Shown: piece by piece, positions 383-21,255 of the stretch
Layout: each line of letters starts with the position of its first letter
Position numbering within the stretch: position 1 is the stretch's first letter
Source of the DNA: Bacteroidales bacterium
GTDB lineage: Bacteria > Bacteroidota > Bacteroidia > Bacteroidales > UBA12077
Direction of reading: 5' to 3'
DNA length: 32,832 nucleotides
NCBI GenBank assembly: GCA_028282585.1
Contig: JANQHR010000063.1
Coordinates: 1-32,832, forward strand
Translations under genes and position numbers: made by a program
The notes under the pieces: generated by a model
Told to the model about the DNA's origin: nothing
The model's database searches: none
The model's input: the letters and a program-made list of their open reading frames with translations, nothing else

Positions 383-1022
383 CATTAGAGGGCACTTAAA
401 ACCCGCTGATTATTAATTGTTTATTTTTTAGTTCTTTGACATTTTTGTAATCGTATTTTGTAAGCACTTCTCTTACAGGAGTTTTTTCGAGTAGGGGTAT
501 GCTAAGGATTTGTAGGATTTCGTAGATTGAGCGGTCAACTTTCAATTTGTTACCAACTATGGCAACAAGACAGTATGCGATGATAGCACAATACATTTGG
601 ATTTTTACAGCATTAATAGTTGTTCCCCAAAAGGATTTTATCTTCAGGTGCTGTTTCATCCATTTGAAAAACAGTTCTACTTCCCAACGCTTCTTATGCA
701 GGTAAACTATTTCGGTAGGTTTAAGCTGCATGTTGTTGGTAAGGAAAATTAGTTCCTTACCTGATTCACAATCATAGTATTTTATTCTCCGGAGCTTCTC
801 TGGATAATCCCTGCTTAGGTAGTAAGTTTCCAACTTGCCGATTTGATCATATTTCACCCCGGTTGCTTTGTCAACTAGGGTTGAATACATCCGCTTAAAC
901 CGCATGTTATCTTTTGCCCGTGTAACAAAGAAAGCCTGTTGCTTGTGAAGATGGTACAGTCTTTTAAAATCAATGTAAGCCCTGTCTATCACATAAAAGC
1001 TCCCGGGCTCATATGAGATCAG
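383..1022 (-). mobile_element. 5'-truncated IS4-family element (DDE transposase C-terminal half plus one terminal IR)
   Basis: ORF 396..992 carries DRAYIDF, FFVTRAK, LRRIKYYD, FLTNN and the YREK-like HKKRWEVELFFKWMKQHL motif. The frame continues upstream as LISYEPGSFYV to ~1022 and then loses similarity. Candidate IR CATTAGAGGGCACTTAA at 383-399 overlaps the stop. Confidence 0.85.
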
Positions 1023-1051
1023 AACAAGGGCATGTTTTGTTTTGCAATGTG

Positions 1052-1167
1052 CTTATATTCAGAAAAATAGAAATCTTTTTTCTTCTGTGGTACCTTTCTG
1101 GTAACCCTATAATTATTTGTTTAAAGAACGCTACAAATTATATTCAAATGTATCAAACTTTAGTGAA
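1052..1167. repeat. Direct repeat, copy 1 (~116 bp)
   Basis: CTTATATTCAGAAAAATAGAAATCTTTTTTCTTCTGTGGTACCTTTCTGGTAACCCTATAATTATT... aligns by eye at roughly 90% with 15448-15564. Confidence 0.95.
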
Positions 1168-1251
1168 ATTCTTTCATATAATAATTTCATTTTTTAAATC
1201 TAATTTTTGTTTTAGTGAAATGCTAATGTAGATAAAGGTGTACGTTTGATC

Positions 1252-3102
1252 CTATCCACTTAAAGGTTTACGTTGAATAATTATTTGAATAAATACTCCT
1301 ATAAATAATGAAATTGAAATATAAGCTAGTAGTATGGTATTAATAATATATAAGTCGAATTCTCTTCGAAATATCTTACCTTCATATTTATGCATTATCT
1401 TATCGCCGTTTTGTCTCTCAATCGACGATAAGTTGTTAAATAAAGTCAATTTATTTGACTTTGATAATTTATTTTTTTTAATGATCGAGATTATTGAGGA
1501 AGTATCAGGTTTACTGATGTTATCCAAATAGAAGAGCGTGTCTTGGAGCCCTAATTTTTTACCATTAGGATTGTATAATCTTGAAGAATCAGATTTAAGG
1601 ATAATGTTCTCAACCCATAACTCTTGTAATATATCATCTTGAAAGAATCTCTCTTTCAACGTGATTGACCCTGCTATTAGACTAATAGTAATAGAGTAAA
1701 ATGAAGCTAAGAACATAATGCCGAACGTCTTTAAAAAGGATCTGCCTATAGGAGAGAGTGGTCTTAATGTTCTTTCATTACTCAATATCATGAAGAAAGT
1801 TAATGGAAATAAAATATAGCATATAGTTTCAATGCTATCATTATTTGTTAAGCAATGCTCAAGAATGAATTTGGATTTAGAAACAAGCAACCATGATGAG
1901 AAGAGAATAACAGTCAGGCTAAATAAAATAAGCTGAAATGATCTATTCAATTTATAAATTCCTAAAATGCAAAAACTGAAAAAGAAGGTTAAAACTCCAA
2001 GACTAATAAAGAATAAAATAATTATAAGACTGATTTGTATAGTGTTTTGAAAATCAGTCCCGTAGAATGCAAAAACAAAAGATGCGATAAAACTTATTAT
2101 TAATAACCATGGCGGGAAACTTTTAAATTTTTCAAGGTTAAAAATCAAACTAAAAGAAGATACAATATTATTTCTTTGAGCTAACCAGAGTGAATAATTC
2201 GCCTTATCATTAGAGTCTACATCCGTTTTCTTATAAATTGAATAGAGCTCTTTTTCAATGTCTTGAAACCAATAGAAATTAACATTTCCATTTTTCTTAT
2301 TCTTTTTTCTATGTATAATATTCTCAGCGCCAGATTTCATCAATACTCTAGCCCATTTATCTTTAACCTTACTATTAACCTTTTTTATTTTATCATTATT
2401 AGAAACATATAAGTTATAATAGAAATCAAGCTTAGCTGATGTAGCTTCGAAATAAAAGTTTTGAAACAATTGGCTTTTTGCCCGGCTAAAATATGGGCTA
2501 GATTTAAATAATTCCGTATGGTTAAAATCGAATAAAAAATCTAAGAATAGCTCCCTTAGAAATAATTTTTCGTAATCATTCCTTATACCATTATTATCAT
2601 TTTTTCCTTTTTTGAAATGCACTAGGTACTGCCAAACTCTTCTTATTCGATATCCTAGTTTCTGCCAAAACTTTAAATTGGCATCTTCCTCATTATTAAT
2701 GAATCCTAATTGTTTCTTTATGTTATCATCATTATAGTACCAACTTTTGTTAGTGAAATTTACATCTTTACTAATTGAATATTTTTGTGCAAGAGGAAAT
2801 TCCGCGTTAACTATCCAGTCAAGAGTCGTATTTAGTTCATTATTTGTTTTATTCCCTTCATAATAAGGTAGCTCAAATAGAATGGTATCCAAAAAATCTA
2901 AGCCTATTGTTTTTTTAGAATCTTCTTTTTTTCTATTTAATTCTCCGGTAAAGTAAAAGCCTATTCTATTTTTATGAAAGATGACATAAACAGGATATGA
3001 AATAGAAGACTTCTTCTGATAAACCTTTTTATAATTATATACTAAATCTCCATTCTGAGAAGCCGAATTATTACACAGTTTAAAGAATTGCCCGTTACTC
3101 AT
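1252..3102 (-). CDS. Hypothetical membrane protein (616 aa): ~320-aa soluble N-terminus, then ~6 TM helices
   Basis: Long ORF starting 3 bp after the upstream gene's stop. Hydrophobic segments at PPWLLIISFIASFVFAF, ISLIIILFFISLGVLTFFFSFCILGI, LILFSLTVILFSSWLLV, ICYILFPLTFFMIL, FGIMFLASFYSITISLIAG and ILLAYISISLFIGVFIQIII. Confidence 0.85.
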   Translation of the reverse strand: MSNGQFFKLCNNSASQNGDLVYNYKKVYQKKSSISYPVYVIFHKNRIGFYFTGELNRKKEDSKKTIGLDFLDTILFELPYYEGNKTNNELNTTLDWIVNAEFPLAQKYSISKDVNFTNKSWYYNDDNIKKQLGFINNEEDANLKFWQKLGYRIRRVWQYLVHFKKGKNDNNGIRNDYEKLFLRELFLDFLFDFNHTELFKSSPYFSRAKSQLFQNFYFEATSAKLDFYYNLYVSNNDKIKKVNSKVKDKWARVLMKSGAENIIHRKKNKKNGNVNFYWFQDIEKELYSIYKKTDVDSNDKANYSLWLAQRNNIVSSFSLIFNLEKFKSFPPWLLIISFIASFVFAFYGTDFQNTIQISLIIILFFISLGVLTFFFSFCILGIYKLNRSFQLILFSLTVILFSSWLLVSKSKFILEHCLTNNDSIETICYILFPLTFFMILSNERTLRPLSPIGRSFLKTFGIMFLASFYSITISLIAGSITLKERFFQDDILQELWVENIILKSDSSRLYNPNGKKLGLQDTLFYLDNISKPDTSSIISIIKKNKLSKSNKLTLFNNLSSIERQNGDKIMHKYEGKIFRREFDLYIINTILLAYISISLFIGVFIQIIIQRKPLSG

Positions 3103-3105
3103 GGA

Positions 3106-5316
3106 TTAGTAATATTTAGCCAATGATTCAAGATAATTACCTACTATTTTGAAAGTTTCCTCAAGTTCAGTAACTCGTAACTCGCTATTAACAAGCTTAT
3201 ATAATTCTAAAGTTTGTCCTATATTATAACCAGTACCGTATGCCAGCTGAAACAAAAGTTGTCTTAAATGGTCATAAAAAATTACTTTTTCTGATTCAAG
3301 TTGAGAATTAATATGATCTATAACCGAACCAGCAAAAGCTGAATTACATTCATAATCTTTTGAAATGATTTCCCTTTGTCCAAATTTGTAAATATATGCA
3401 CCATATAAGCCTTTTGACCAGCTTCTAACATCAATTTCCTTATCATCCTTTTTGGGAATTAACTTATTCTGTATTAAAAATCTTATCAAAATGTCTTTTG
3501 TAATGATTACTTGAGAAATTTGAAGACGTAAAAATGAATAAAAAGCATAATTAAACAATTCTGGAGAGTTTACAGGATCACCTCCTCGAGAAAGATACCA
3601 ATGCTCACTATTATGACCTAATCCCTGTTCCCTTAATCGGTCTAGAAAGGCGGTTTGAAAAGACGAAATATTGATGATCCAGAATTTCCCCAATGGACCT
3701 TTATTCCTAGAAATTCCCTCGATTAGCTGTTTAAAATATTCTTTTTCAGTATAACTAGAAGACATTTCAATTGGCATATAAAATGCTAGTTCAGAGTAAT
3801 CTTTCTCATTATACCCCTCATCTTTAGCAAGAATCCTATGTAAAATATTAAGTAATTCATGCGAATATTCTCTTGCTCCCTTTCTTCTTAAATTTTCGCC
3901 TAACAAATAGTCTAATAAAATTATATCATAAGTTTTTTCAGATAATTTCTCTAGCGCTTTACATATAATATACTGTTTTTTACTTTTAATTGATGAATCA
4001 AGATCAGAAACTGAATCAATAGTTATATTTTCATTATCTATAATATCACTAATAATTACTTTTTTAGTAAGACCTTCTCCTTCTAAACCAGTAAGTTCGA
4101 CATCGGCAAAATCATCAATTAAGAGGCATTTCCATTTTAAATTAAGTATTTCTTCATTGTTACCTATAAGCTTTTTCGTTTCCTCCTGCATTTTCGTTTC
4201 TGAATGAAAGATAAAAGGAGTAATATGTGAACCGTGTGAATCAGATTCTTTTAGTTTTATATTAAATAACGCTTTGTTAACGGTACAATATTCACTGAAT
4301 ACACTAGATTTTAATAATTGTGCATTATGATTAGGAAGTGAGAATAATCCCTGTTCTATATAGGCAATTGGGTAGTATGCTGTTTTTATATTCGAGTCAA
4401 TAAATTGAATATTTCTTGCAATATTTAGTTTGCTCTTGAGCCAGTCCAATTCTTCAAAATAAGCTTTTATATCTTTCAAGGGAAAAGCTTCTGATTTGGT
4501 TTTTGAACTAATAGCTAATTCAAATAGATCGTCGACGCCCGCAAATAACACTTTCTTTTTATCAAATGTTTCTATCTTATTAAAAAATGAAAAAAATGTT
4601 TTCAAAAAATCCTTGTGAGACAAATCAAGTAATGTCACAAAGCAAATAATAAAATTATCTTCTAAGATTGGCTTGTAATATTTAAGATTTTCTTCTGTAA
4701 TAAAATTATTCCTTATCTTCTCAAAGCTTTCTGTTATGTAATAATTATAACTAGTTTCTAATATACTTTGGGTCTCAAAATCAATAGCAACATTAAGTTG
4801 AAAATCTCTTATTCCAGTATCAATATCATGGTCAGCTTGTGATTCCAGTAAATTTTTTTCTCTCTTGATTAATAGATTTTCAATTTCACCATCAGGAATC
4901 TTAATTTTATTTACTATCTCATCAATTTCATTATTTGCTATAGTCTGTTCCCCGTTTTTCACTTTCCTTATAAACTGATGTACAATACCATTTGTGTGAG
5001 AAAATGAAAAAAAATTAATATTATTATCAGCTTCAACACTCAAAAGTGCGTTATTCACTTTTTTCTCATCTTTAGCAAAATCAAAATCACTGGCATGCAA
5101 GAAGATATAATAAGTATGTTCATTGGAAAAACTACTCAATAATGAATTTATATATTCCTCTTTACTTTGATTGTCGGCTTTTACATTAAAGTACCTAATA
5201 GCTTGGTGACTGTCTAAGCAAGTATCATTTAAATGAGGATACTTTTGAATGAAATCTTCATCCCATGTACAGAATACGTAAAAAATGTTATTATTATTTT
5301 GTTCCATGGGCTGCAT
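3106..5316 (-). CDS. 736-aa protein with an internal response-regulator receiver-like domain and no recognisable DNA-binding output
   Basis: KCLLIDDF (acidic pair), YDIILLDYLLG (phosphoacceptor Asp) and WIINISSF (S/T position). The start overlaps the upstream stop; the true start may be the second Met (MEQ). Confidence 0.75.
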   Translation of the reverse strand: MQPMEQNNNNIFYVFCTWDEDFIQKYPHLNDTCLDSHQAIRYFNVKADNQSKEEYINSLLSSFSNEHTYYIFLHASDFDFAKDEKKVNNALLSVEADNNINFFSFSHTNGIVHQFIRKVKNGEQTIANNEIDEIVNKIKIPDGEIENLLIKREKNLLESQADHDIDTGIRDFQLNVAIDFETQSILETSYNYYITESFEKIRNNFITEENLKYYKPILEDNFIICFVTLLDLSHKDFLKTFFSFFNKIETFDKKKVLFAGVDDLFELAISSKTKSEAFPLKDIKAYFEELDWLKSKLNIARNIQFIDSNIKTAYYPIAYIEQGLFSLPNHNAQLLKSSVFSEYCTVNKALFNIKLKESDSHGSHITPFIFHSETKMQEETKKLIGNNEEILNLKWKCLLIDDFADVELTGLEGEGLTKKVIISDIIDNENITIDSVSDLDSSIKSKKQYIICKALEKLSEKTYDIILLDYLLGENLRRKGAREYSHELLNILHRILAKDEGYNEKDYSELAFYMPIEMSSSYTEKEYFKQLIEGISRNKGPLGKFWIINISSFQTAFLDRLREQGLGHNSEHWYLSRGGDPVNSPELFNYAFYSFLRLQISQVIITKDILIRFLIQNKLIPKKDDKEIDVRSWSKGLYGAYIYKFGQREIISKDYECNSAFAGSVIDHINSQLESEKVIFYDHLRQLLFQLAYGTGYNIGQTLELYKLVNSELRVTELEETFKIVGNYLESLAKYY

Positions 5317-8300
5317 ATAATTGTTCAGTTAAAGTATACTTGCAATCAAAAATTGCATTTTCAATAGATGAATATTGGATGAAAGGTAATAAATCCGGTA
5401 TCTCATTGGAGTCAGGTCGAGATCTCCCAGAATGAATGAAAATTTTTGTTTTCTTCCCAGGTCTTTTTTCTGTTATAGAATTAATCATTTTTTCATAAAT
5501 AGCTTTTGGACCTCCTTGTGTGTTCAATCCTTCCGATATTTTTTGGGTCAGAGAATGATGGACTGAAACAAAATGATAATCATTAAAAACTTTAAAATTT
5601 AGATCCGAAGCTGTTCTGAATATATTTCTAATTTTCGATTCAGTATCAAATAAAATCATCAAGTCGCCTAAAATATCAATTGAAAAAATATCGACTTCTT
5701 TATTTTTAAATAGAATATGTTGTTTAATATTCTCGTCATTTAATCGTTTGATATTTACATCTCTTTCTGAAATAAATTCAGCAAGTTCATTTTTGTTTTT
5801 ATGATTTAGATCTGTAAAAGTAAACGAAGGGTATTTTAGAAATTTCTTTTCATTAAAATATTTATTAAAGTCTTTTTCATTTTCCTTTAATTCGAGAAAT
5901 TTATCAAATTCTTGAACATATAGTGATTTTTCCTCGCCGGTAATACGACTCCAGATCCTTTCATCAAGGATAAGAACCTTGGTTTTCGTTGATTCAAACA
6001 TGTTCAGATACCAAGTTTCATTTAAAATTGAATTTCTAACTAATCTATCTGTTGAGTTATCACCTGTTATTGTTTCAAGGAATCTTGGTTTCTCATTTTT
6101 AATAAGTTCCTCTAATTCTTTATTGCTATATTCATTGAGATGTTTTAAAAATGAAATGCTGTTTTTTACTAGCGATAGTTCAATTTTTGGGTAGTAAGAC
6201 TCTAATTTCTTTTCTTCTTTTTTTGTGCTGGAGACACTTGTTCTGATTTTATCATAAATACTTATTGTTGGTCTTTCCCTTCCGAATCTTTTACCTATCC
6301 AGTAATCTATAATTTTGATGTATCGTTTATCTAACACATGATAAAACGCATTTAAGAGATTAATTTTTTTATCATTAGAGAAGTTATCTGATTCAAGTAT
6401 TTTCTCAAAAATTTCAATCTTTGGATATTCAAAAAATCTAGTAGGTGATAACTGCTTTATGTCAGCATCCATTTTCTGTTTGACTGACTTACTGTATATC
6501 ACATATCTATAACTCTTACATTTTTCGTTTTTATACTCATCAACTGTCAAAAAGTACCAACCTTCATAAATGCATTTATCTGATAATTCCTTGCTAAAAT
6601 ACTTATTCTTTAACTTTTGTGTAAGCAACACAGCAACTTTTCTTGATTTAAGCAAGTTGAACTGATAAGCAATATTCTTTTTTTTATTAAAAACTCTTAC
6701 AATATTTGAATTTCTGTTTTCCACTTCATTAAAATCGAGATTCCTCAACCATGCAGCTGAAATCTTAATTTCTTTTAAACCTTTATTTGATTCATTTAAT
6801 GAACCATCTTCATTAGTTAAAGGACTATCAATTCCTTTTTTGATCCGAAAAATATTCGCGTACTGATAAATCTTATTTTCTTCAATTTCCTGATCATCAA
6901 TATGTCTTCTTTCTTCATCAGTTAGTGCATATATTTTATCAGCTTCCTTGTCAATACATATAAGGCTTCCAACATCTTGGCAATTATCATATATCGTAAT
7001 TTCTAAAAGGCTAGGATCCAAGCTAGAATCTTTTAATTCAATTGTAAACTTTAACTTTGCCAAATCTTTTTTAGAATGTTTTGCAGAGTTTCTTATTATA
7101 TTTTCCATAATAGAGAACAATGCTTGACGACCTATTATTCCAGCTGGCAGATCTATATTTTTCTTTCTTAAATCGGATAAATCTTTATCTGCTTGAGTTC
7201 CAGGTTTCGTTTTGTCACCTTTAAATTCACCATAATTAATCTCTAATTGATTTCTACTTACTCCTTCAGCTCTAGCAATATTGTCAAGTAAAATATTTAC
7301 AACATCTCTACCTTGCAAATTGTGCCGCTTTACTCTTTTATCCCAGTTAAGTTCATCGTAAATTGAATCCTTAAAGTTTACAGGTGCAAAATAAGGTATA
7401 TGCCATGTTGAAATAGTTGCAATAAAATCTTGCCTTTCCTGCAGATATTGATAAAATCGATTGGTTCCCAATAGAAATGGTAATCCCTCTTGTTCAATTG
7501 TTTCTTGTACCTTATGAGCATCATAACCTTTTATTTGGTAATTTTTATTTACCAAATTTTCTAATAATTCGTTCTTAACAATATCTGTTACAGAATTAGT
7601 TTTCGTTTTTAAATTGGATAGGACATGACTACCCAAATTATGGCTCATGTTTCTTGCCATTATTGCACTTATAGCTGACTTTGTAGCATGATATTTGGCT
7701 TTTTTTGTCTGATCTAAAACTAGTGCGTATTGAAAGGTTTGGTAAATTGAAATAACATTATTTTGTACAAAAGTTTGATAATTTTTTCGCTCAAAATATG
7801 TTGATTCCGTTTTGAAAGGAACCAGCATACCTCCGACCCACCTTTTAGTTATTTTGTCTTCTTCTATAACATTTGTTATTGCTGGAAAATAGATAAATTC
7901 TTTATAATCATTGAAAGGTACGATTGTTTTGAAAAATTCTAAGTAAGTATAAAAAGCTTTATTAATATCTGAAAATTCAATTTTTCCAGAAGTGAGGCTT
8001 TGCTTTTCATTTAGAAGATCATTTATCAGTACACATTTATCAATGTTTTGGTTTTCTGATTTAGCTTCAGAATAAACTTTTTCAATAAAATCTTCAAAGT
8101 TATCCTTGGGTTCATTAATTTCATTTGATTCAAATTGTATATGAAACTCATTCTCAGAAATACCCGTTTTGTTTTTTGTTAGTATTAAATATGGTAAATT
8201 ATCCATATATCGTTCTGGGTAATTGCTAGATAAAGCTTCCAAAATTTTATTTGAATCAAAAATCTTATTAACGATTTTGGGATTTTTGTAAAGTTCAGTA

Positions 8301-8647
8301 AGCCTTTTTGCATGTTTTATTAGATATTCATTATTATCATTATTTGGAGTTAGATAAAAGGCTTTAAACTTTTTCTCAGCTTCATATTCCGATGGTAACC
8401 AGTAATCTAGTATTACAAAATCATTTTCATTATTCCTCATACTGAATAATGATTTTATTTGGAGAACTAATTGATTAAATAATGGTTTAGAGCTCAGATC
8501 TATAATACTTGCGATACATTCTTTCTGGATAATTTCATCAATTGACCTAATAAATGAGTATGGAGATACTATTTCAGTATGTATGTCTTGAACCCACTTA
8601 TAGTTTTTGTTTAGTTCTCTATTTTTATCACTATTAGCTGTAAACAT
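5294..8647 (-). CDS. 1117-aa soluble divergent histidine kinase/GHKL ATPase with a C-terminal degenerate receiver-like domain
   Basis: H-box-like AIMARNMSHNLGSHVL; N-box FSIMENIIRNSAKH; G1-like ITIYDNC; G2-like SNKGLKE. C-terminal KVLILDERIW ... FVSVHHSL ... IFIHSGR. No TM segments seen. Confidence 0.75.
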   Translation of the reverse strand: MFTANSDKNRELNKNYKWVQDIHTEIVSPYSFIRSIDEIIQKECIASIIDLSSKPLFNQLVLQIKSLFSMRNNENDFVILDYWLPSEYEAEKKFKAFYLTPNNDNNEYLIKHAKRLTELYKNPKIVNKIFDSNKILEALSSNYPERYMDNLPYLILTKNKTGISENEFHIQFESNEINEPKDNFEDFIEKVYSEAKSENQNIDKCVLINDLLNEKQSLTSGKIEFSDINKAFYTYLEFFKTIVPFNDYKEFIYFPAITNVIEEDKITKRWVGGMLVPFKTESTYFERKNYQTFVQNNVISIYQTFQYALVLDQTKKAKYHATKSAISAIMARNMSHNLGSHVLSNLKTKTNSVTDIVKNELLENLVNKNYQIKGYDAHKVQETIEQEGLPFLLGTNRFYQYLQERQDFIATISTWHIPYFAPVNFKDSIYDELNWDKRVKRHNLQGRDVVNILLDNIARAEGVSRNQLEINYGEFKGDKTKPGTQADKDLSDLRKKNIDLPAGIIGRQALFSIMENIIRNSAKHSKKDLAKLKFTIELKDSSLDPSLLEITIYDNCQDVGSLICIDKEADKIYALTDEERRHIDDQEIEENKIYQYANIFRIKKGIDSPLTNEDGSLNESNKGLKEIKISAAWLRNLDFNEVENRNSNIVRVFNKKKNIAYQFNLLKSRKVAVLLTQKLKNKYFSKELSDKCIYEGWYFLTVDEYKNEKCKSYRYVIYSKSVKQKMDADIKQLSPTRFFEYPKIEIFEKILESDNFSNDKKINLLNAFYHVLDKRYIKIIDYWIGKRFGRERPTISIYDKIRTSVSSTKKEEKKLESYYPKIELSLVKNSISFLKHLNEYSNKELEELIKNEKPRFLETITGDNSTDRLVRNSILNETWYLNMFESTKTKVLILDERIWSRITGEEKSLYVQEFDKFLELKENEKDFNKYFNEKKFLKYPSFTFTDLNHKNKNELAEFISERDVNIKRLNDENIKQHILFKNKEVDIFSIDILGDLMILFDTESKIRNIFRTASDLNFKVFNDYHFVSVHHSLTQKISEGLNTQGGPKAIYEKMINSITEKRPGKKTKIFIHSGRSRPDSNEIPDLLPFIQYSSIENAIFDCKYTLTEQLYAAHGTK

Positions 8648-10131
8648 TATAAAAAGCCTCCACTCTTTTTTTTCTTAGATTCCAAATAACCATTGATTTC
8701 AGAAATTTCATGGATTATTTCTGTATAAGAAATATTGGTAAAATATTCTATCCAAATTTTATTTGCAAGGTTAAGATCAATCTTATCTTTATTGCTAAAA
8801 TTTTTATTTGCCAGTTTCCACCCTTCCTTATATTCTAATAGATTCGCTTTTTTAAGCTCAGTTTCTATATTGTTATAGAATTTAGATTTTATATTTCCTA
8901 GAAAAAGATCCCATGCAGGGGAATTAGGAAGAGGGTACAACTTGCTGACCTCTATACTAATTGCATTTCTAAAACCTGAAAGCCACTGAATAAAACTAAT
9001 TGTTTTATTTAAATCATCCTTAGTTTCACCTAAAGCACCTAGAATAAAAGAAGCATGTAATTGAAAATTATAATCTGCAATTTTTTGAATTGCTTGTTTG
9101 TTAATATCAGTTGTATAGTAACCTTTTCTCAGTTGCTTAAGTGTATATTCACTTCCTGTTTCCAAACCAACAATTATTCTTTTAACATGCAGCTTTTCAA
9201 AATCATCTAAAATATCATTATCCTTCACAATATTATCTGCTCGAGAATATACAATTAGTTCAATATCGGAGTTCTTATACCAATCAGGTATGGACTTTAC
9301 TAATTCTTTTCTATATTTCTTCAAGCCCCCGAAGTTATCACAAACTTCAAAAAACAGATTCGCTTGTAATTCTTGATTATAATGCTTTATTAATTCCCAT
9401 AAATTTTCAGGTGTTCCATACTCAGGTTTCAGTGAATAAATGCTGCAATACAAACAATGGTTTTTAAAATTTGTACAACCTTGCGCATTATTTACTGTAA
9501 GTGGAAAAATATTTTTACCATGATATTCTCCAAAATCATTATTATAGTTTTCACTATATCTCTTTAATTGATCTCCCCCTAATAAATTAAAATCTGGAAG
9601 TATTTTATTAAAAGAAGTTTTTTGAATTTGCTTTGACTGCTTAACAATACTTCCTTCTCTATAGAATAAATTACTTGTCTCGCTGAAATCGTTTGACTCT
9701 ATTGCAGCAACTAAATTACAAAAATCAAAACCTCCATTTTCTCCTTGAATAACATAATCAACATACTCTCTTTTATTTAGAATTAATTCAGGAAAAAAAG
9801 ACACATGATCATTTCCAAGAACTATATATTTTACACCTACTTCTTTTGAATATTTTGAAATTTCAAGGGCATTCTCATATGTAGAAGTTAATGTGCTAAT
9901 TCCCAAAATTTCCGGTTTGAATTCCTTTATCTGATCTTTTACGAGGTTGAAATTTTGAATTTCAGCATCAATAATCTTAACATTTATATAAGGAAATGTT
10001 GCCTTTAATTCAGATCCAATTTTCACCAATCCTAATGGAGGATAACATGAATAATTAACTGTTGGATTATATTTATCCCCAATCTCTTTTATTGAAGAAT
10101 TTAATAACAATACCTTTTTAATAAACCCCAT
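8647..10131 (-). CDS. Cobalamin-binding-domain radical SAM protein (class B methylase-like)
   Basis: N-terminal B12-binding motifs PPLGL, KPEILGIS, IVLGNDHVS and DYVIQGE. Cluster motif GCTNFKNHCLYC. Barrel motifs IIVGLETGS and SFILGALGET. Confidence 0.92.
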   Translation of the reverse strand: MGFIKKVLLLNSSIKEIGDKYNPTVNYSCYPPLGLVKIGSELKATFPYINVKIIDAEIQNFNLVKDQIKEFKPEILGISTLTSTYENALEISKYSKEVGVKYIVLGNDHVSFFPELILNKREYVDYVIQGENGGFDFCNLVAAIESNDFSETSNLFYREGSIVKQSKQIQKTSFNKILPDFNLLGGDQLKRYSENYNNDFGEYHGKNIFPLTVNNAQGCTNFKNHCLYCSIYSLKPEYGTPENLWELIKHYNQELQANLFFEVCDNFGGLKKYRKELVKSIPDWYKNSDIELIVYSRADNIVKDNDILDDFEKLHVKRIIVGLETGSEYTLKQLRKGYYTTDINKQAIQKIADYNFQLHASFILGALGETKDDLNKTISFIQWLSGFRNAISIEVSKLYPLPNSPAWDLFLGNIKSKFYNNIETELKKANLLEYKEGWKLANKNFSNKDKIDLNLANKIWIEYFTNISYTEIIHEISEINGYLESKKKKSGGFL

Positions 10132-11288
10132 TATAATTTTTGAATAGTATCTTTTTCTACAACAAATAATATCTCTCGCTTTAAATTTTTGTACCTCCAG
10201 ATACTTATTGGCTTATTTACATCCCCATTTTCATCGAAAGTAATAATTCCACTAGTTCCTTTATAATTGTTTGTTTTATTTAGCCTTTCAATAAAATCAT
10301 CTTGCCCATTACTATTCCCGTATGCATTCAACAAAATATTCGTAGCATCATATATTTCACATGCAAAAATTCCAGGATAATTACCATAAGATTTGTTGAA
10401 CTCCTTCATGAATTCCATTCGCACATCACCTATATAACCTTCAGGAAGGGACGTAGAGGAATAATACATATCGTTAATAGCTGTTCCTGCAAGTTCTAGA
10501 ACTCTTTCATCTTCAGCACTTTGATAAGAAAGCAATTGAACATCTTTATTTGCTTCACGTATTTGCTTGGCTATAAGACCAATATCTTGTGAAACACCAG
10601 ATATATATAGAGCATCAGGATTATTTTGTAATGCTTTTTGAATAATGTTTTTGAAATCGATAATATTTTCTTGAAACAATACCTTATCAATTACTTTATG
10701 ATCCAAATCATTATAATATTTTTCAAAAGAGTTGGCATATGATAAAGTACCTGCAGCTTGATTTGCAATTATAGCAATTCTTAAATTGTTAAATCTACTT
10801 TTAACAAATTTTGAAAAAGCAATAGTCTCGATGTTATCTGCGTTAATTGTTCTAAAAACATATTCTCCAGCATTTGAAATATCTACACTTGTTGATGATG
10901 GACTTATAATCGGTACCTTCCCTCTGTTTGCCAATGGACTAATTGACAATACTTCTGGACTGGTAATGGGACCGAGTATTCCAATAACTTTATCTATTTC
11001 AATTAATTTTTTACAAATATTTACAGCTTTTGACGATTGACCTTGACTATCTTCAAAAACTACTATAATTTTTTTTCCATTAAGACCGCCTTGATTGTTT
11101 AATTGCTCTACAGCTAATTCAACAGCTTTTCTTGTATCTACACCATAACTAGCTAAATTACCCGTTAAAGGCAAAATTGCTCCAATCTTAACTGTTCTCT
11201 CTGACTCATTATTTTTTGAACTATTTCTGCAATTTTGAAACATTAGAATTGCGCAGGAAATTGTTACTATTATAATTAATTTTTTCAT
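10131..11288 (-). CDS. Branched-chain-amino-acid-type (LivJ/LivK, PBP type 1) ABC substrate-binding lipoprotein
   Basis: Signal peptide ending FQN-C20; VKIGAILPLTG, GGLNGKKI, EDSQ, ILGPITS, YVFRT, YDATNIL and GIITFDENGD. Confidence 0.93.
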   Translation of the reverse strand: MKKLIIIVTISCAILMFQNCRNSSKNNESERTVKIGAILPLTGNLASYGVDTRKAVELAVEQLNNQGGLNGKKIIVVFEDSQGQSSKAVNICKKLIEIDKVIGILGPITSPEVLSISPLANRGKVPIISPSSTSVDISNAGEYVFRTINADNIETIAFSKFVKSRFNNLRIAIIANQAAGTLSYANSFEKYYNDLDHKVIDKVLFQENIIDFKNIIQKALQNNPDALYISGVSQDIGLIAKQIREANKDVQLLSYQSAEDERVLELAGTAINDMYYSSTSLPEGYIGDVRMEFMKEFNKSYGNYPGIFACEIYDATNILLNAYGNSNGQDDFIERLNKTNNYKGTSGIITFDENGDVNKPISIWRYKNLKREILFVVEKDTIQKL

Positions 11289-11360
11289 ACTATGTTTGCT
11301 TTACATTATGATGATATTAACTCAGTATTATTAAATTTTGTTAAAATTCTTTCAACTTAT

Positions 11361-12068
11361 TTAGAAAAAAAGATTACTGACTTCTCCTATTGATAAAGAA
11401 TTATTCGACTCAAAGTTCTCTTCAATTTCACCAGATTTAATTAGCACTATTCTCTCAGAAAACTCAATTGCTCTAGTAACATTTTGTTCTATTAGTATTA
11501 TGCCTAACTTTCTCTCTTGTTTTAGTTTAATTAGGATTTCATACGTTTCACTCATTAAGGCTGGCGATAGTCCTGCGCTTGGCTCATCCAAAATAAGAAA
11601 TTTAGGGTTGCGGATCAATACCATTGCTAACGCCAATTGATGCCTTAATCCTCCACTTAAATATCCTGCTTCTTTTTTTAATTCCTTCTTATGTAAAAAA
11701 GTGAAATATTTTGACAATTTTTCAACTTGATTTTCCAGATCTTTTCGTTTTAGTTCATTTCCTGCCATTATCAAATTTTCATAAGTGCTTAGATGAGGAA
11801 ATACCTCACCTCCTTGCATAAAATAGCCTATCCCTGATTTTATAATTTCAGATGTATTTTTTCTTGACATGTCAGTACCGTTAAATATTACTTTCCCAGA
11901 AAAGTAAGGAAGCATGCCAAGAATGACTTTAGCGATAGTACTTTTACCAGCTCCATTTTGACCAATAACAGAAACTGACTCACCAGGTAATACAGTCAGG
12001 TTGATATTTCTAATTATATCTTGATCCTTTAGGTAACCACCTGTTATATTTTGTAATTCGAGTTTCAT
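11361..12068 (-). CDS. livF: LivF-like ABC ATPase
   Basis: Walker A GQNGAGKST, signature LSGG, Walker B LILDEPSAGLSP, and IEQN switch; 235 aa. Confidence 0.9.
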   Translation of the reverse strand: MKLELQNITGGYLKDQDIIRNINLTVLPGESVSVIGQNGAGKSTIAKVILGMLPYFSGKVIFNGTDMSRKNTSEIIKSGIGYFMQGGEVFPHLSTYENLIMAGNELKRKDLENQVEKLSKYFTFLHKKELKKEAGYLSGGLRHQLALAMVLIRNPKFLILDEPSAGLSPALMSETYEILIKLKQERKLGIILIEQNVTRAIEFSERIVLIKSGEIEENFESNNSLSIGEVSNLFF

Positions 12069-12880
12069 ACTCCTAAATAATTCTTTTGTACGAATTCATT
12101 TCCTAATACTTTTGAAGGTGTACCCTGCATATTAATTTTGCCATTATCAAGGAAAAAACAATTGTGAGCTGTTTTTCGTACAAAATTCATATTATGCTCT
12201 ATTAAGAATACGGTCATTCCATTTTCCAAAACCATCTGTTTAATTATTTCTGAGATAAAATCATTTAATGCAGGATTTATACCTGCAGTTGGTTCATCAA
12301 GTAATACAAGTTTATAATCTGACATGAAAAGTCTTATTAAGCCTATAAGTCTTTTCTGACCAAAAGATAAGGATGATGCTTTATCGTTTAGTTTTGATAA
12401 AAGTTCATGAGATTTTCCAAATAAATGAGCTATTGTTTCAGTAGCTTTTTGGGTCAGTACTTTTTCTGACTCTTTTACTCTCTTTACATTAAATATTGCT
12501 TCAAATGGGTTTCCTTTTAAAACATTTTTATCAGCAATGATTAGATTCTCTAATACAGTAAGAGTTGGAAATATATGATTATCTTGGAATAGTCTTCCAA
12601 TTCCTAAATGTTCGCGTTTATATGGAGGTATTTCCGAAAGGTTTGTTGTTTTTGAATTGTGAAAATAAATATTGCCACTATCCTCTTTTAAAAAGCCTGA
12701 AAGAATATTAAATAAGGTGGTCTTACCGGTAGCATTCCCTCCAATAAGTGCGGATATTGTATTTTCAGGAATTGAAATATTCAGATTTGACAAAAGATTA
12801 TAAGTTTCATCATCTTTTCCATACTTCCCTTTGGAAAAGCTCTTGTATAATTCTTTTATTTCTAAAATATTTCTTGCCAT
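12065..12880 (-). CDS. livG: LivG-like ABC ATPase
   Basis: Walker A GGNATGKTT, GIGRLFQ, LSFGQKR, LLDEPTAG, IEHNM and C-terminal NYLG. ATGA overlap with livF. Confidence 0.9.
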   Translation of the reverse strand: MARNILEIKELYKSFSKGKYGKDDETYNLLSNLNISIPENTISALIGGNATGKTTLFNILSGFLKEDSGNIYFHNSKTTNLSEIPPYKREHLGIGRLFQDNHIFPTLTVLENLIIADKNVLKGNPFEAIFNVKRVKESEKVLTQKATETIAHLFGKSHELLSKLNDKASSLSFGQKRLIGLIRLFMSDYKLVLLDEPTAGINPALNDFISEIIKQMVLENGMTVFLIEHNMNFVRKTAHNCFFLDNGKINMQGTPSKVLGNEFVQKNYLGV

Positions 12881-12881
12881 C

Positions 12882-13751
12882 TTAAAATTTATAAACTCCA
12901 GCTAATCCCTGGCTTCTATATCTCATGATTATTACCAATGTTAAACCATAAATTATCATTCGCATATTAGCAGCAATACTATCCGGTAACCCAACAAACC
13001 TTAGCAATTCCGGGAGTGCAACTACAAAAATAGCTCCAATAATTGGTCCTTTTATATTTCCAGTACCACCAATAAGGACGGCTGAGATGATAAAAATTGA
13101 TTCATCTAAATTGTAACTTGTAGGATCAATATAGCTAATATAACTCGCATAAATAAAACCACTAATTGCAGCAAAAGAACTTGATATCACAAACGATTGA
13201 ATTTTTAATTTTGTGATATTCTTACCTAATGCAATCATGGATATGCTGTCATCTCTTAAACCTTTTAAATCCCTACCAAAGGGAGATTTAATTAATCTGT
13301 GAAAGAAAAATATTGTAATGGCTGAAAAAGCTGTGCTAACCATTAGAAAGGATTCTATTCCTTTTATTTCTATATAACCGAATAATTTTGGGGAAGGAAT
13401 CCCTGGTATTCCGTATGGACCCATAGTGACTGCAATCCAATTGTTTAAAATCGTGAAGACTATAATTTGAATGCCTAGAGTTGCCAGAATAAAATAATCA
13501 CCTTCCATTTTTAATGAGATATATCCAACGATTATTGCAAAAAGGAGAGTTATAACAATGGCTAATATTACACTTGGGAAAAAAGAAAGTCCAAGTGTTT
13601 TCAATGCTAGTGCTGTAACATATGCTCCTATGCCATAGAATGCTGCTTGCCCAATTGATAATAAATTTGATAATCCCACCATAAGATTTGTACTTACAGT
13701 AAGTATCAGATATATGTTTATCATTATTAATAGATGCAATACATAATTCAT
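12882..13751 (-). CDS. livM: LivM-like ABC permease
   Basis: SIGQAAFYGIGAY, GDYFILATL, GPYGI, SPFGR, IGGTG and LPELLR; multiple TM helices. Confidence 0.9.
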   Translation of the reverse strand: MNYVLHLLIMINIYLILTVSTNLMVGLSNLLSIGQAAFYGIGAYVTALALKTLGLSFFPSVILAIVITLLFAIIVGYISLKMEGDYFILATLGIQIIVFTILNNWIAVTMGPYGIPGIPSPKLFGYIEIKGIESFLMVSTAFSAITIFFFHRLIKSPFGRDLKGLRDDSISMIALGKNITKLKIQSFVISSSFAAISGFIYASYISYIDPTSYNLDESIFIISAVLIGGTGNIKGPIIGAIFVVALPELLRFVGLPDSIAANMRMIIYGLTLVIIMRYRSQGLAGVYKF

Positions 13752-13752
13752 A

Positions 13753-14622
13753 CTATACCAATCTTTGTTTTTCTCCGAACAAACCTTGTGGTCTGAATAT
13801 TAGAAATATTATAAGAATACTGAATGTCATTAAATCTTGCCAGTTAGCGGAGAACTTCCAGACAACTAATGATTGTAATAATCCTATAAAAATACCTCCA
13901 AATAGGGGGGCATGAAACTTCCCAATTCCGCCAATTATTAGAGCGACAACTGCGTTAAGAAACATCGGCATTCCTATATAAGGATCCATTCCTACATCTA
14001 AAGAAATAAGTATACCTCCAATTGCAGCAAATGCTCCACTTAAAGCATATAAACTAAGTCTGAATTTTGGCACATTTAAAGCAAAAACATTACAAAGTGT
14101 AACATTGTCTCTCATTGCCCTTGTTTTAATTCCAAACTTGCTGTATTTGAGAAATACCATAAATCCAGAAATGGCAAGAGTGCTAATTACTAGTTGAGTA
14201 AATTGCTTATATGTGATAATGATGTTACCTAATGAAATCGTGTTTGAGATTGAAGAACTCAAAATCTTAGTATCATTACCGTAGATTAATGCGATAACAT
14301 TTATTCCGACTATCATTAAACCTATTGAGCTAATCATTATGACATTGAGTGAACTTTTTTTCTTGATAAGAGGTCTGTAAATGATTAATTCAATCAGAAC
14401 ACTGATTAATACTATACAAACAATAGCAGCAACTGAACTTAGAACTAAAGGATATCCAGCTTGCGAATAAAAGGAATAAACCAGGTAAGGAGCAATCATA
14501 TATAAAATAGCAAATGCTATATGGAATATCCGCGTAGTATTATAAACAATCGCAAATCCTAAAGCTACCATAGCATAAATTGCTCCGTTTATAAATCCAT
14601 TTATGAGAAACTGAGTTAGCAT
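13753..14622 (-). CDS. livH: LivH-like ABC permease
   Basis: QFLING..GAIYAMVALGFAIVY, SKFG..RA, IIGGIG and RPQGLFG. Confidence 0.9.
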   Translation of the reverse strand: MLTQFLINGFINGAIYAMVALGFAIVYNTTRIFHIAFAILYMIAPYLVYSFYSQAGYPLVLSSVAAIVCIVLISVLIELIIYRPLIKKKSSLNVIMISSIGLMIVGINVIALIYGNDTKILSSSISNTISLGNIIITYKQFTQLVISTLAISGFMVFLKYSKFGIKTRAMRDNVTLCNVFALNVPKFRLSLYALSGAFAAIGGILISLDVGMDPYIGMPMFLNAVVALIIGGIGKFHAPLFGGIFIGLLQSLVVWKFSANWQDLMTFSILIIFLIFRPQGLFGEKQRLV

Positions 14623-14638
14623 TGCTAGTTTTATTTTA

Positions 14639-14917
14639 TTAATAGTGTTTCAAAAATTCCTTAATTCCTTCTTTTAAATATTTTAAATCTCCTAGCTCTA
14701 CTAAAAGGAACGATTTTATAAATTCTATTTCAATTTCTTTCTCAGGTTTATCAAGTGATTTAGCCAGTAAAGGAATCATCTCTGGAGTTGGTTTTCTCTC
14801 ATTTCTCTCAATTTTACTAAGTATAGATGTATCTATGTCAAGCATGGCAGCAACTTTTCTAAGTGGCATTTTTTCTTCTTCCCTAATTGATCTAATATAT
14901 TCTCCAAACGTTTTCAT
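14639..14917 (-). CDS. XRE-family (HTH_3) transcriptional regulator heading the operon
   Basis: TFGEYIRSIREEEKMPLRKVAAMLDIDTSILSKIERNERKP; 92 aa. Confidence 0.92.
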   Translation of the reverse strand: MKTFGEYIRSIREEEKMPLRKVAAMLDIDTSILSKIERNERKPTPEMIPLLAKSLDKPEKEIEIEFIKSFLLVELGDLKYLKEGIKEFLKHY

Positions 14918-14946
14918 CTTGACGATTTTGTTTTGATGATTACTTC

Positions 14947-14954
14947 CAAATGTA
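14947..14954 (-). promoter_or_regulatory. Bacteroidota -7 promoter element for the minus-strand operon
   Basis: Minus-strand TACATTTG matches TAnnTTTG about 30 bp upstream of the XRE start codon. Confidence 0.6.
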
Positions 14955-15120
14955 CAGAAAATCTAATAGCTTAATAACATATTGTGATTATTTTCTTCAA
15001 CATATTTGTATGAATGACAGGCGTTAGGATATTTCATATATACATTGAACGAGTGCTACATGATTATCAAGTTTTATTCTGGACTAATTAAGGTTAACTC
15101 AAAATATCTATTTTTGTGGT

Positions 15121-15447
15121 ATGGCTAAGACTTATGATAATAGTAAAATTAGACTAACCAATGGGGAAGATATTGTCTTGAAAGATTTTTTCCATAAAAA
15201 CTATCCGGTATTTAGTTCTTTTGCCTCTAAATATATTTCCAATAAAGATCTTTGTGAAGATTTTGCTCAAGATATTTTAATAAAATTCTGGGAAAGCAAG
15301 CAAACCTTTCTTAGCATACACTGTAAAAGCTTATTTTAATAAATCAATCCTAAATTCATGTCTCGACCACATTAAGCATGAAAAGGTAAAAGACAAATAC
15401 ATTAACTATAAAATCTTGAATAAAGATATATCATATTGTAAATCGTA
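15121..15447 (+). pseudogene. ECF sigma-70 factor (Bacteroides expansion family), frameshifted and truncated
   Basis: Region 2 motifs FASKY..EDFAQDILIKFWE. After a frameshift near 15320 it continues KAYFNKSILNSCLDHIKHEKV, then runs into repeat copy 2. Region 4 is absent. Confidence 0.85.
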
Positions 15448-15564
15448 CTTATATTCAGAAAAGTAGAAATCTTTTTTCTTCTGTGGTATCTTTCTGGTAA
15501 CCCTATAATTATTGTTGTTTTAGAACGCAATAAATTATATCCAAATGTATTAAATTTTATTGAA
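15448..15564. repeat. Direct repeat, copy 2 (~117 bp)
   Basis: Same orientation as 1052-1167 and roughly 90% identical by manual alignment. Confidence 0.95.
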
Positions 15565-16395
15565 TGATTTAGGAGGGAAATACTTTTTTACTGATTATCA
15601 TTTTTATGATTGATACATATTTATAGCAGGGTACAACAAGATATCTTGAAATGATATCATTAAAATTTAATTAAATATATTCAGACGCTATTGTCTTTTA
15701 ATTTTATTATTCATAACTTGTGTATTGAAAATTAATTACTAATGTCCTCATACATAATTATAAGATGTTAACGATCCGCCTCTATACGTATGGAACCAGT
15801 TTTAAGGTTATTCACCAGTTCTTACCTCCAGATAGCCTAAATAATAAATTCCCATATCTGAATAGAACCTTAGAAACCCTCAAGATTCATAGATGAAATG
15901 TTAATATGATTTACTTGGATTTTAGCAATATAGAGATCTCTGGTTCAATATTTTAAAGTGCAAATAACCCAGTTTTAGGTTATACAAACGTTAGCAAGCA
16001 TTAGAAAAAAATAATAAAATTATGGAAGAAAATAAATATCAGAAGATAAACAAGCAAATACCACTGGATATGGTTATAATTTAAATAATCAACAAAGATT
16101 TGAACTAATTTTAAAAGGCTTTCTATTAGAAAACTATAATAATCAAGGGTTCAATTTTTTTAAAACTAAACTATTTATAATACAATGATGCGATTTGCGC
16201 CAAACATTACCATAGTGAAAGTTGGAGAATTGGGTATTTAGGTCAACCTGAAATTCTAAAACACTATTAAGGTCAAGAATATACCTGTAGTAGTGCCTAT
16301 GGTTATCTTTTAAATCAAGGTGGTCTTTTTTTAAGCATGTAAAGTTAGGTAGTAACAAATTCTTAAACAATTACACATCTTTTAATGTAAAACAA

Positions 16396-16929: not shown

Positions 16930-17127
16930 CATTTTATAAAGAATATAATGTATAGGTTTCCTACGGGACGGCAATACACAAATAAAGACCGTTGATCTTT
17001 TATTCCACAAGCGTGGAACTTTTTCCATTTGTGTAACTCCCAGTAAAAAGATAGAAATTGCCTTTAGCTTGTATTAAAATAACTTTAGAAAATAAGAACA
17101 ATCATATATAAACCAAAATAAGTTATC

Positions 17128-17835: not shown

Positions 17836-17967
17836 AAAATTCTTTGGATGAATGACCAATTAAAAAACTTGGTTTTAAACTCTTTGATTACGGGATATGT
17901 CAATTATACAGTAGCGAAATAATCAAATGTTTGTATTATACAACCCTTAGCACACAATAGCAAAAAA

Positions 17968-21237: not shown

Positions 21238-21255
21238 ATATAAAAACCTATAAAG

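Follow-up and report, generated by a model that had tools for sequence, protein, structure and literature searches.

Ten co-oriented genes on the minus strand of a contig from a Bacteroidales bacterium (assembly GCA_028282585.1, contig JANQHR010000063.1; C164) very probably work together as a single cassette, at the core of which is a divergent pair of kinase and receiver. The window analysed here is the entire contig of 32,832 bases, which belongs to an assembly of 4.89 Mb in 173 contigs. The genes run from position 14917 down to 1252. They encode, in order, an XRE-type regulator, the five proteins of a Liv-type ATP-binding cassette (ABC) importer, a B12-binding radical S-adenosylmethionine (SAM) enzyme, an atypical cytoplasmic histidine-kinase-like protein (P0001), an atypical receiver protein (P0002) and a membrane protein (P0003). 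The best explanation of this set is a self-contained, horizontally moving signalling module around a previously unannotated two-component branch. For its overall working we favour, by a little over an even chance, an import-fed phosphorelay that acts on the membrane protein.

In the open reading frame (ORF) calls, the ten genes are tightly coupled, and their coordinates and junctions are as a first-pass annotation of the bare sequence had given them. Adjacent genes overlap by one base at 10131 and at 8647, by four bases at 12065-12068 and by 23 bases at 5294-5316. The intergenic gaps are 1, 1, 3 and 16 bases, and the largest is 72 bases (11289-11360). From 900 to 16500 the minus strand has no terminator-like site. 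Pfam places seven of the ten proteins: the XRE protein (HTH_3), two permeases (BPD_transp_2), two ATPases (ABC_tran), the substrate-binding protein (SBP; Peripla_BP_6) and the radical SAM enzyme (B12-binding and Radical_SAM). The other three are P0001, P0002 and P0003. None of these has a match in Pfam (E≤0.01 for P0001, HisKA and HATPase_c included; Response_reg included for P0002), in NCBIfam or among the PADLOC-DB 2.0.0 models at E≤0.01, and the set remains without a named system, as had been noted from the sequence. Judged by Pfam criteria, P0001 and P0002 belong to no recognised kinase or receiver family.

The kinase-like, receiver and membrane proteins

P0001 (1117 aa; 5294-8647, minus strand) has a variable N-terminal region (residues ~1-280), a putative dimerisation and histidine phosphotransfer (DHp) helix with H336, a putative Bergerat-fold catalytic domain that extends to ~670 and a conserved alpha/beta C-terminal part (680-1117). 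The AlphaFold model has a predicted local distance difference test score (pLDDT) of 66.9 overall; it is poor over residues 1-280 and good from ~280. In a Foldseek search with this model, the top rows are all sensor histidine kinases (best E 4.5e-4, probability 0.96). In VIA-align, 50 of the 50 listed rows are the DHp and catalytic domains of histidine kinases, aligned to model residues ~316-670 with Z values of 6.1-8.6. For example, 8f71_B aligns over 149 residues with Z 8.6 and a root-mean-square deviation (rmsd) of 3.7. These Z values appear moderate for this aligner, yet the list is uniform. The predicted model contains both a DHp hairpin and a Bergerat catalytic fold, and no transmembrane (TM) segment is predicted in P0001. 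Both results suggest a cytoplasmic kinase that lacks a TM sensor, as had been proposed. Searches from sequence add nothing to this fold: the P0001 family profile (A1) has no match among solved chains at E≤1. A chance stretch of ROCK1, found when the P0001 sequence was searched against solved structures, was discarded.

In the alignment of 42 family members, from which motif invariance was read, H336 (in RN.SHN.GSH) and both N516 and N520 (in EN..RN..KH) are invariant (42/42). H336 lies on a long helix of the model (284-350), where the phospho-accepting histidine belongs. The G1 region lies within an insert (549-594) of low confidence and many gaps, and an invariant KG[IL]KE (622-626) stands where a G2-like element is expected.

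The C-terminal half of P0001 (680-1117; window positions 5297-6610, minus strand) has its own set of invariant residues: H836, GxxS..R..R (862-871), DER (895-897), H1030, K1036, HSGR (1072-1075) and DCK (1101-1103). Profile A4, made from this part, finds nothing usable among solved structures. In hhalign comparisons of the C-terminal parts with receiver alignments, the probability is below 2%. In the atlas, residues 690-1117 give weak leads only (0.81-0.83), to families of CheY-like fold. Our guess from the model is that this half could be receiver-like with a histidine at the acceptor position, given the order strand-DER, strand-H, strand-SGR.

Members of the P0001 family are ~1000-1300 residues long. 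The word-indexed database gives 212 matches, and among the 120 listed, two have any Pfam domain, a methyltransferase in both cases. Against 1.84 billion representatives, the P0001 profile matches 3112 clusters at E≤1e-3 and 1522 at E≤1e-30. By our own estimate, 3112 is far fewer than expected had generic histidine kinases been caught, which suggests that the family is distinct.

P0002 (736 aa; 3106-5316, minus strand) has a fast-evolving N-terminal region of ~360 aa, a conserved GH..PF.FHSE motif, a putative receiver domain with inserts (~392-605) and a helical C-terminal region (~605-736). Its model has a pLDDT of 68.2 overall and is good from ~300. In VIA-align, the top 50 rows are almost all receiver domains, with Z values of 8.4-9.9 over whole chains; 3grc_A, for example, aligns over 125 of 125 residues with an rmsd of 2.9. 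By hhalign, P0002 is related to the stand-alone receivers of related loci with a probability of 94.4% (E 9e-8). Foldseek with the P0002 model returns no row at E≤1e-3, the sequence of P0002 finds nothing usable among solved structures, and profile A2 has weak receiver matches only (E 0.013-0.6). In the model, residues ~392-605 have a receiver fold. In this region D401, D402 and D469 are invariant (29/29), and position 551 is serine in 21 sequences and threonine in eight, so that the acidic pocket and the Ser/Thr of receivers are both present. Neither Pfam nor structure comparison detects a DNA-binding domain in P0002, and the earlier description of a receiver protein without one agrees with the predicted structure.

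Among the relatives of P0002, only residues 361-736 are conserved. A jackhmmer search with the N-terminal 360 residues finds no relative in the related loci. In other loci, a positional 'middle' protein of ~300 aa falls into small sequence groups only and has no match to the window; the N-terminus of P0002 might be a fused counterpart of it.

P0003 (616 aa; 1252-3102, minus strand) has a soluble N-terminal region of ~320 aa that is followed by approximately six hydrophobic helices. By the Kyte-Doolittle scale there are six segments between residues 326 and 611, the number that had been read at first pass as probable TM helices, and there are 5-10 in most full-length homologues. P0003 has no usable match in the atlas, and profile A3 gives nothing usable against solved structures. 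Searches of large databases with P0003 and with A3 give a single relative, of 46% identity, that has neither name nor domain.

Importer, enzyme slot and conserved neighbourhood

The neighbourhood of P0001 was compared in 80 related loci, which were drawn from 135 confirmed P0001 relatives on contigs from one genome per species. Most of these loci are from Bacteroidota metagenome-assembled genomes (MAGs). Other labels include Akkermansia, Puniceicoccales, Kiritimatiellae, Lentisphaerae, Elusimicrobiales, Calditrichia (Caldithrix), TM6, Clostridia, Saccharofermentanales and more; all taxon names are MAG labels and call for some caution. By phmmer, homologues of the window proteins are present in 70 of the 80 loci for the kinase P0001, 48 for LivF, 46 for LivG, 36 for the SBP, 35 for LivH, 34 for LivM, 30 for P0002 and 21 for P0003. 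By gene clustering, the Liv permeases are present in 35 loci, and the P0002 and P0003 families in 29 each. The two families occur together in 27 loci, so that P0003 is accompanied by the P0002 family in 27 of its 29 loci; the other two contain a fused kinase-receiver (L026) and a divergent homologue (L017). In 20 of the 80 loci the complete set of five module types is present: permease, SBP, kinase, receiver protein and TM protein. This is the neighbourhood analysis, seeded with the 1117-aa protein, that had been suggested as the check on co-occurrence, and it identifies the importer, kinase, receiver protein and TM protein as a conserved neighbourhood, not a chance juxtaposition.

The gene order is, as a rule, permease-permease-ATPase-ATPase-SBP-kinase-(small protein)-receiver protein-TM protein. 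In L026, the SBP lies upstream and the permeases and ATPases lie downstream of the fused kinase-receiver gene and the trio. The linkage of importer and kinase thus survives rearrangement.

In 26 loci there is a second architecture, in which P0002 and P0003 are replaced by two soluble, paralogous proteins, c8 and c5 (hhalign probability 98.7% between them). Both are related to P0002 solely via the receiver region (hhalign 75% and 93%), have weak Pfam Response_reg matches and never occur with P0003. The second-architecture loci often carry an importer of the SBP_bac_3 or NMT1 type. Among the downstream genes of three such loci (L048, 13787-16489, plus strand; also L062 and L071) there is a 900-aa protein with an N-terminal receiver and a HerA/FtsK/TraG-like ATPase. 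Stand-alone receivers (c6) are present in some related loci.

The importer was tallied, over eight called upstream genes, in those 57 loci whose sequence extends 6 kb or more upstream of the kinase. For the enzymes, the tally covers the upstream genes, the kinase itself (fusions) and three genes downstream. An ABC importer adjoins the kinase in 39 of the 57 loci. The importer is of the Liv type in 27 loci (12 with a methyltransferase, three with a radical SAM enzyme and 12 with neither) and of another ABC type, SBP_bac_3 or NMT1, in 12 (five, one and six), a count that wrongly includes L049. There is no importer in 18 loci (one, five and 12). Over the three importer classes, a methyltransferase or radical SAM enzyme is found in 27 of the 57 loci; L070, with its SDR and pyridoxal phosphate (PLP) enzymes, is counted under 'neither'.

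In the window, the Liv-type genes lie between the XRE gene and the radical SAM gene. The LivH-type permease (289 aa; 13753-14622, minus strand) matches BPD_transp_2 at 7.8e-33 and the LivM-type permease (289 aa; 12882-13751, minus strand) at 1.1e-42 (114.2 and 146.5 bits, cut-off 26.8). The LivG-type ATPase (271 aa; 12065-12880, minus strand; Walker A GGNATGKT at residue 47) and the LivF-type ATPase (235 aa; 11361-12068, minus strand; Walker A at residue 36, LSGG at residue 137) match ABC_tran at 4.1e-27 and 1.4e-30 (95.9 and 107.1 bits, cut-off 25). The Liv-type (HAAT) SBP (385 aa; 10131-11288, minus strand) matches Peripla_BP_6 at 1.3e-51 (176.7 bits, cut-off 31.7). By these scores, all above the Pfam cut-offs, the five transport genes are a bona fide HAAT-family (LivJHMGF) importer. 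The first family assignments of the XRE protein, the transport proteins and the radical SAM enzyme likewise hold by Pfam.

The N-terminus of the SBP, MKKLIIIVTISCAILMFQNC, reads by eye as a signal peptide with a lipobox-like cysteine, and the SBP is probably an exported lipoprotein. Among solved structures, the SBP is closest to Leu/Ile/Val and amino-acid/amide binding proteins (best 3td9, 4.6e-44). Against NCBIfam PRK15404 it scores 113.2 bits, where the cut-off is 477; the branched-chain equivalog level is not reached, and the ligand is therefore not assignable.

Liv importers are uncommon in Bacteroidota, as had been stated at first pass: a LivM-like permease (E≤1e-20) is present in 58 of the 401 genomes of a sample of the phylum, and 40 of the 58 are in one family. 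The genome studied here has no other Liv permease or binding protein, and the cassette pair are the sole copies. The LivM matches are bimodal. Twelve other genomes contain close copies of 45-61% identity, compared with ~30% in the remainder, which sets the cassette copies apart as a highly conserved subgroup of LivHMGF importers. Cassette-linked LivM homologues in other phyla reach E 1e-99 to 3e-131 (phmmer). Unlike other LivJHMGF importers, the cassette importer travels with SAM-dependent enzymes and signalling proteins. The kinase is present in three of the 12 genomes with a close LivM, always 5-7 kb downstream on the same strand. In the remaining nine genomes, too, a methyltransferase or radical SAM gene accompanies the transporter, and beyond this pair there follow unrelated genes or other signalling proteins. 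In L085, for example, a 610-aa GGDEF protein (1346-3175, plus strand) lies between the SBP and the close Liv permeases, and the genome has no match to the A1 kinase profile. In L087, a 2162-aa NACHT/STAND-type NTPase (5953-12438, plus strand) comes right after the close Liv permeases, and the locus begins with a radical SAM gene. The importer and enzyme look like a portable input module, with the kinase family as its commonest but not its sole partner.

The enzyme of this pair in the window is a B12-binding radical SAM protein (494 aa; 8647-10131, minus strand), encoded between the SBP and kinase genes. It matches B12-binding at 1.6e-12 (47.7 bits, cut-off 32.1) and Radical_SAM at 1.3e-12 (48.6 bits, cut-off 29.5). 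The B12-binding domain is N-terminal and is followed by the radical SAM domain, at the start of which lie Cys 219, 226 and 229. These cysteines have the spacing CX6CX2C; the usual spacing in radical SAM enzymes is CX3CX2C. None of the 21 NCBIfam matches comes near its cut-off (best BchE, 106.9 bits vs 481), and the best of these weak matches are to BchE, HpnJ, the methyl-coenzyme M reductase (MCR) glutamine C-methyltransferase and P-methyltransferases. Since every NCBIfam match is far below its cut-off, no characterised subfamily can be assigned. There is no solved relative at E≤1e-5. The domain content of the enzyme makes it a true member of the class B (B12-dependent) radical SAM proteins, without an assignable subfamily.

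Contrary to what had at first been supposed, this gene is not a core member of the cassette. A homologue is found in one of the 80 loci by phmmer, and its cluster is linked to the cassette only in L040, L046 and L093. The interval between importer and kinase is an enzyme slot. In some loci it contains class I SAM methyltransferases (clusters c7 and c15; L023 and L030), and the other occupants are various radical SAM enzymes, SDR dehydrogenases, a PLP enzyme, a decarboxylase with a pyrroline-5-carboxylate (P5C)-reductase-like protein and, once, a porin. Methyltransferase domains are also fused to the kinase N-terminus (L056, P0022 and P0074). In contrast to class B radical SAM enzymes elsewhere, the position here is interchangeable with class I methyltransferases and with other radical SAM types. 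Because the type of enzyme varies by locus, the proposed 'modify' step is supported as a variable enzyme slot and not as a B12 gene.

The XRE-type helix-turn-helix protein (92 aa; 14639-14917, minus strand; HTH_3 3.4e-11) is the first gene of the run. No homologue is found by phmmer in any of the 80 related loci, so that it drops out of the conserved set in which it had been placed; it would be a locus-specific, local add-on regulator.

The contig and the distribution of the cassette

A Bacteroidota-type -7 promoter-like TAnnTTTG motif, TACATTTG, is present on the minus strand at 14947-14954, 30 nt upstream of the XRE start codon. This is the motif that the first-pass annotation took for the single promoter of the run. 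Its position before XRE is suggestive, but two further minus-strand copies lie inside the cassette (13025-13032 and 8095-8102) and the motif is not enriched: the window contains 43 copies where 52.5 are expected, and 96 of 100 shuffles reach 43, so the count is not above chance. A sigma-70 promoter scan, uninformative for this phylum, gives 84 sites compared with 95.6 in shuffles. Rfam has no match to the window.

The guanine plus cytosine (GC) content of the cassette is 29.3%, compared with 37.6% in the part of the window from 20 to 32.8 kb. The observation that the cassette has lower GC than the right-hand region stands, but it is the right-hand side that deviates. The genome has a mean GC of 31.9% in 5-kb windows (standard deviation 2.0%), and 17% of these windows are at or below 30%. 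Given this mean, the GC of the cassette is near-typical and the higher-GC side with the conjugative element is the outlier. Genome-wide GC rules out the cassette as a low-GC island.

Mobile-element features flank the cassette on both sides, in the form of a transposase fragment and a CTnDOT-type element. Next to the downstream end of the cassette, a 198-aa ORF (396-992, minus strand) is a truncated insertion sequence (IS) remnant with the C-terminal part only of DDE_Tnp_1 (profile positions 82-200). On the other side, the 1.5 kb between the cassette and a divergent gene set (14918-16395) contains no ORF of at least 80 aa. A 72-aa ORF in this interval (15121-15339, plus strand) may resemble region 2 of an extracytoplasmic function (ECF) sigma factor, and may be a gene remnant. 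The divergent set (16396-19476, plus strand) has three genes, for a 177-aa protein that starts like a signal peptide, a homologue of Endonuclease I (3.8e-10) and a protein of 502 aa without a Pfam match. These three genes, unrelated to the cassette, separate it from the CTnDOT-type conjugative element, which lies in the right-hand part (20000-32832) and runs off the end of the contig. The element encodes RteC (24320-25177), an HTH_17 protein (25848-26213) and the DUF4134 and DUF4133 transfer genes (31877-32499). It also contains a HipA-family toxin kinase (27344-28576, minus strand; HipA_C 2.6e-45, Couple_hipA 7.4e-16). A 90-aa ORF just upstream of HipA (28587-28859, minus strand) could be a HipB-like partner. 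A 490-aa protein (29565-31037, plus strand) has a weak match to the Mrr_cat restriction endonuclease (2.8e-4) in its C-terminal part, and its N-terminal 330 residues are unassigned.

The distribution of the kinase is very patchy. It is found in none of 36 congeneric species, in none of 24 genomes of other families of the order, and not in the plasmid and phage collections. The cassette is horizontally scattered and accessory. A defence scan covered 148 of the 351 flanking proteins of related loci, drawn at random and with no background set. Matches to defence models are IetA (three), PD-T4-6 (three), PDC-S01 (two), MkoA (two) and mad6 (two), and also BrxL. The flanking genes sampled also include IS66 transposases and ordinary metabolic genes. 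Searches of indexed full text, supplements and 1.7 million PubMed Central (PMC) articles aside, turn up no account of the arrangement or of the SHNLGSH motif.

Proposed mechanism, alternatives and significance

In the proposed mechanism, the exported lipoprotein SBP would capture an amino-acid-like compound and LivHMGF would import it. The slot enzyme, in the window the B12 radical SAM protein and most likely a methylase, would convert the imported compound. The variable N-terminal region of P0001 would read the imported or converted compound, or the activity of the transporter. P0001 would then autophosphorylate on H336 and transfer the phosphoryl group to D469 of P0002, and phosphorylated P0002 would switch P0003, the output, which may be a pore, a channel or a transporter-like effector. 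We infer this order of import, modification, sensing and output, and likewise any anti-phage role, both of which go back to the first-pass annotation. As to biological role, we lean towards a membrane response to a sensed small molecule of foreign or community origin, in conflict or communication and not in housekeeping nutrition.

Several results weigh against this mechanism. The importer appears to be an accessory input and not a requirement, because 18 of the 57 kinase loci have no adjacent importer and because seven loci contain kinase, receiver protein and TM protein without Liv permeases (of these, two have an importer of another ABC type and two offer little sequence upstream). The transporter subfamily is not exclusive to the kinase system, since close LivM relatives occur without the kinase in nine of the 12 genomes. 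Kinase activity is not assured, because the ATP-lid (G1/G2) is atypical and poorly aligned and the Pfam HisKA and HATPase_c models are unmatched. In the P0002 alignment the canonical receiver lysine is not identified; the corresponding stretch is G-A-[CD]-P-x-N-T-P, with P585 invariant. The conserved C-terminal 440 residues of P0001 have no assigned role and could be the effector themselves. Lastly, it is solely co-inheritance that suggests P0003 to be an output and not an input sensor.

A bolder form of the same mechanism, which we put forward tentatively, is that the cassette belongs to a new import-triggered class of conflict or communication systems. A dedicated importer with a binding protein would bring in a specific amino-acid-like molecule of foreign or community origin, and the SAM enzyme would convert it to the true signal. 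The soluble kinase would relay this to the receiver protein, which would open or activate a membrane effector. The importer and enzyme module would be plugged into other sensors elsewhere (GGDEF in L085, STAND in L087), and the C-terminal half of P0001 may be a second relay domain, either catalytic or His-bearing and receiver-like.

A Detocs-like abortive infection system is the first of the alternatives, and an unlikely one. The kinase would sense phage, the receiver protein would be phosphorylated and the membrane protein would kill or arrest the cell, while the importer and enzyme would only modulate the system or supply it. In the accessible part of its description, the Detocs gene set consists of a kinase (DtcA), a stand-alone 'buffer' receiver (DtcB) and a receiver N-terminal to an effector (DtcC; PNP in 80%), and a minority of Detocs operons have transmembrane effectors (10.1101/2023.01.24.525353). 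As far as that part goes, the logic of a kinase and a receiver-linked effector is the same: a cytoplasmic-type kinase and a receiver-containing partner are used outside transcription control, with modular effectors, membrane-spanning ones included, and a patchy accessory distribution. Stand-alone, DtcB-like receivers (c6) also occur in some related loci. The extremely patchy distribution of the kinase, the mobile-element-rich context with HipA and an Mrr-like nuclease nearby, and the fast evolution of the N-terminal regions and of the positional 'middle' protein are as expected of such a system. So are the receiver-HerA/FtsK-type ATPases in related loci and the Liv and radical SAM module beside a NACHT/STAND NTPase in L087. 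A few of the 148 sampled flanking genes match defence models, but ordinary housekeeping genes are present in the flanks as well and the defence matches have no background rate.

The cassette differs from Detocs, as it stands in the same portion of that source, in most of its parts. The cassette kinase is unrecognised by the Pfam kinase models, and its large C-terminal half is conserved. P0002 (736 aa) has its receiver in the middle, where Detocs has one ahead of a PNP domain, and a gene of its own encodes the membrane protein. The three-gene Detocs set is absent from the window, which has no stand-alone buffer receiver gene and no PNP domain. An ABC importer and an enzyme slot are attached instead, and the nutrient-type importer with its SBP (39 of 57 loci) has no counterpart in the Detocs operons described there. 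P0001-P0003 match no model of the PADLOC release, which may or may not include Detocs, and the kinase is not found in the phage and plasmid collections; both points count against an abortive infection system.

Less probable again is that the transporter is a co-sensor. The kinase would monitor the activity of the ABC transporter, in the manner of the Bce type or of Pst-PhoU-PhoR, the relay would adjust a membrane function and the enzyme would be a metabolic passenger. BceAB-BceRS and PstSCAB-PhoU-PhoR have membrane-anchored kinases and DNA-binding regulators. The cassette resembles them in that an ABC transporter and a kinase without its own extracytoplasmic sensor are co-encoded, presumably as one sensory unit. 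P0001 has neither a TM segment nor a recognisable ligand-binding domain, and three importer families beside one kinase family are as expected if the kinase were to read a shared feature such as the ATPase cycle. BceS in the BceAB complex (8g3a, Z 7.0) is among the neighbours of the kinase core, which shows a shared fold only. The cassette differs from these systems in that its kinase is soluble, its receiver protein has no detected DNA-binding domain, its importers are of three binding-protein-dependent families and a small-molecule enzyme is interposed. The highly variable kinase N-terminus, sometimes replaced by or fused to a methyltransferase, fits small-molecule recognition better than the reading of a transporter, and 18 of the 57 loci have no adjacent transporter to be read.

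There is a still smaller chance that the genes are a specialised-metabolite cluster, either like those of ribosomally synthesised and post-translationally modified peptides (RiPPs) or for the salvage of amino-acid derivatives, with the kinase and receiver as cluster regulators. Radical SAM, SPASM or methyltransferase enzymes with an ABC transporter and a two-component pair are typical of such clusters. The slot enzymes that recur in related loci act on amino acids (PLP, decarboxylase, SDR and P5C-reductase-like), and the radical SAM enzyme weakly matches the RiPP C-methyltransferase TIGR03975 (9.8e-11), although far below the cut-off. The transporters, however, are importers with binding proteins and not exporters. 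No precursor-peptide-like ORF is evident, with a maximum gap of 72 bases in the run and with the ORFs of at least 25 aa in 14800-16450 judged by eye. Usually a single enzyme is present, and its kind differs between loci in which the kinase, receiver and TM proteins are constant. No DNA-binding output is detected in the receiver protein.

That an ordinary operon for amino-acid import, a stray radical SAM gene and three genes of an unrelated operon came together by chance might be suspected from the B12 radical SAM homologue in one of 80 loci, the XRE gene in none and the transporters of this subfamily that lack the kinase, but it is highly improbable and already contradicted by the 80-locus results: Liv permeases are beside the kinase in 35 of 80 loci in several phyla, compared with any such permease in 58 of 401 genomes, the genes overlap or lie 1-3 bases apart, and the linkage is kept in the rearranged L026.

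The cassette has the look of a two-component module, for signalling or conflict, of an undescribed type. Pfam, NCBIfam and PADLOC miss at least 1500 diverse clusters of kinase-like proteins of ~1100 residues, together with two companion proteins. If the module serves defence or inter-microbial sensing, it would be the first known to us that carries its own nutrient-type importer. H336, D469, the ligand of the SBP and the product of the enzyme are handles for experiment. That complete ABC importers and small-molecule enzymes regularly accompany this kinase family suggests that imported and processed metabolites can feed a phosphorelay with a non-transcriptional membrane output. If true, this would widen the notion of what the inputs and outputs of two-component systems can be.

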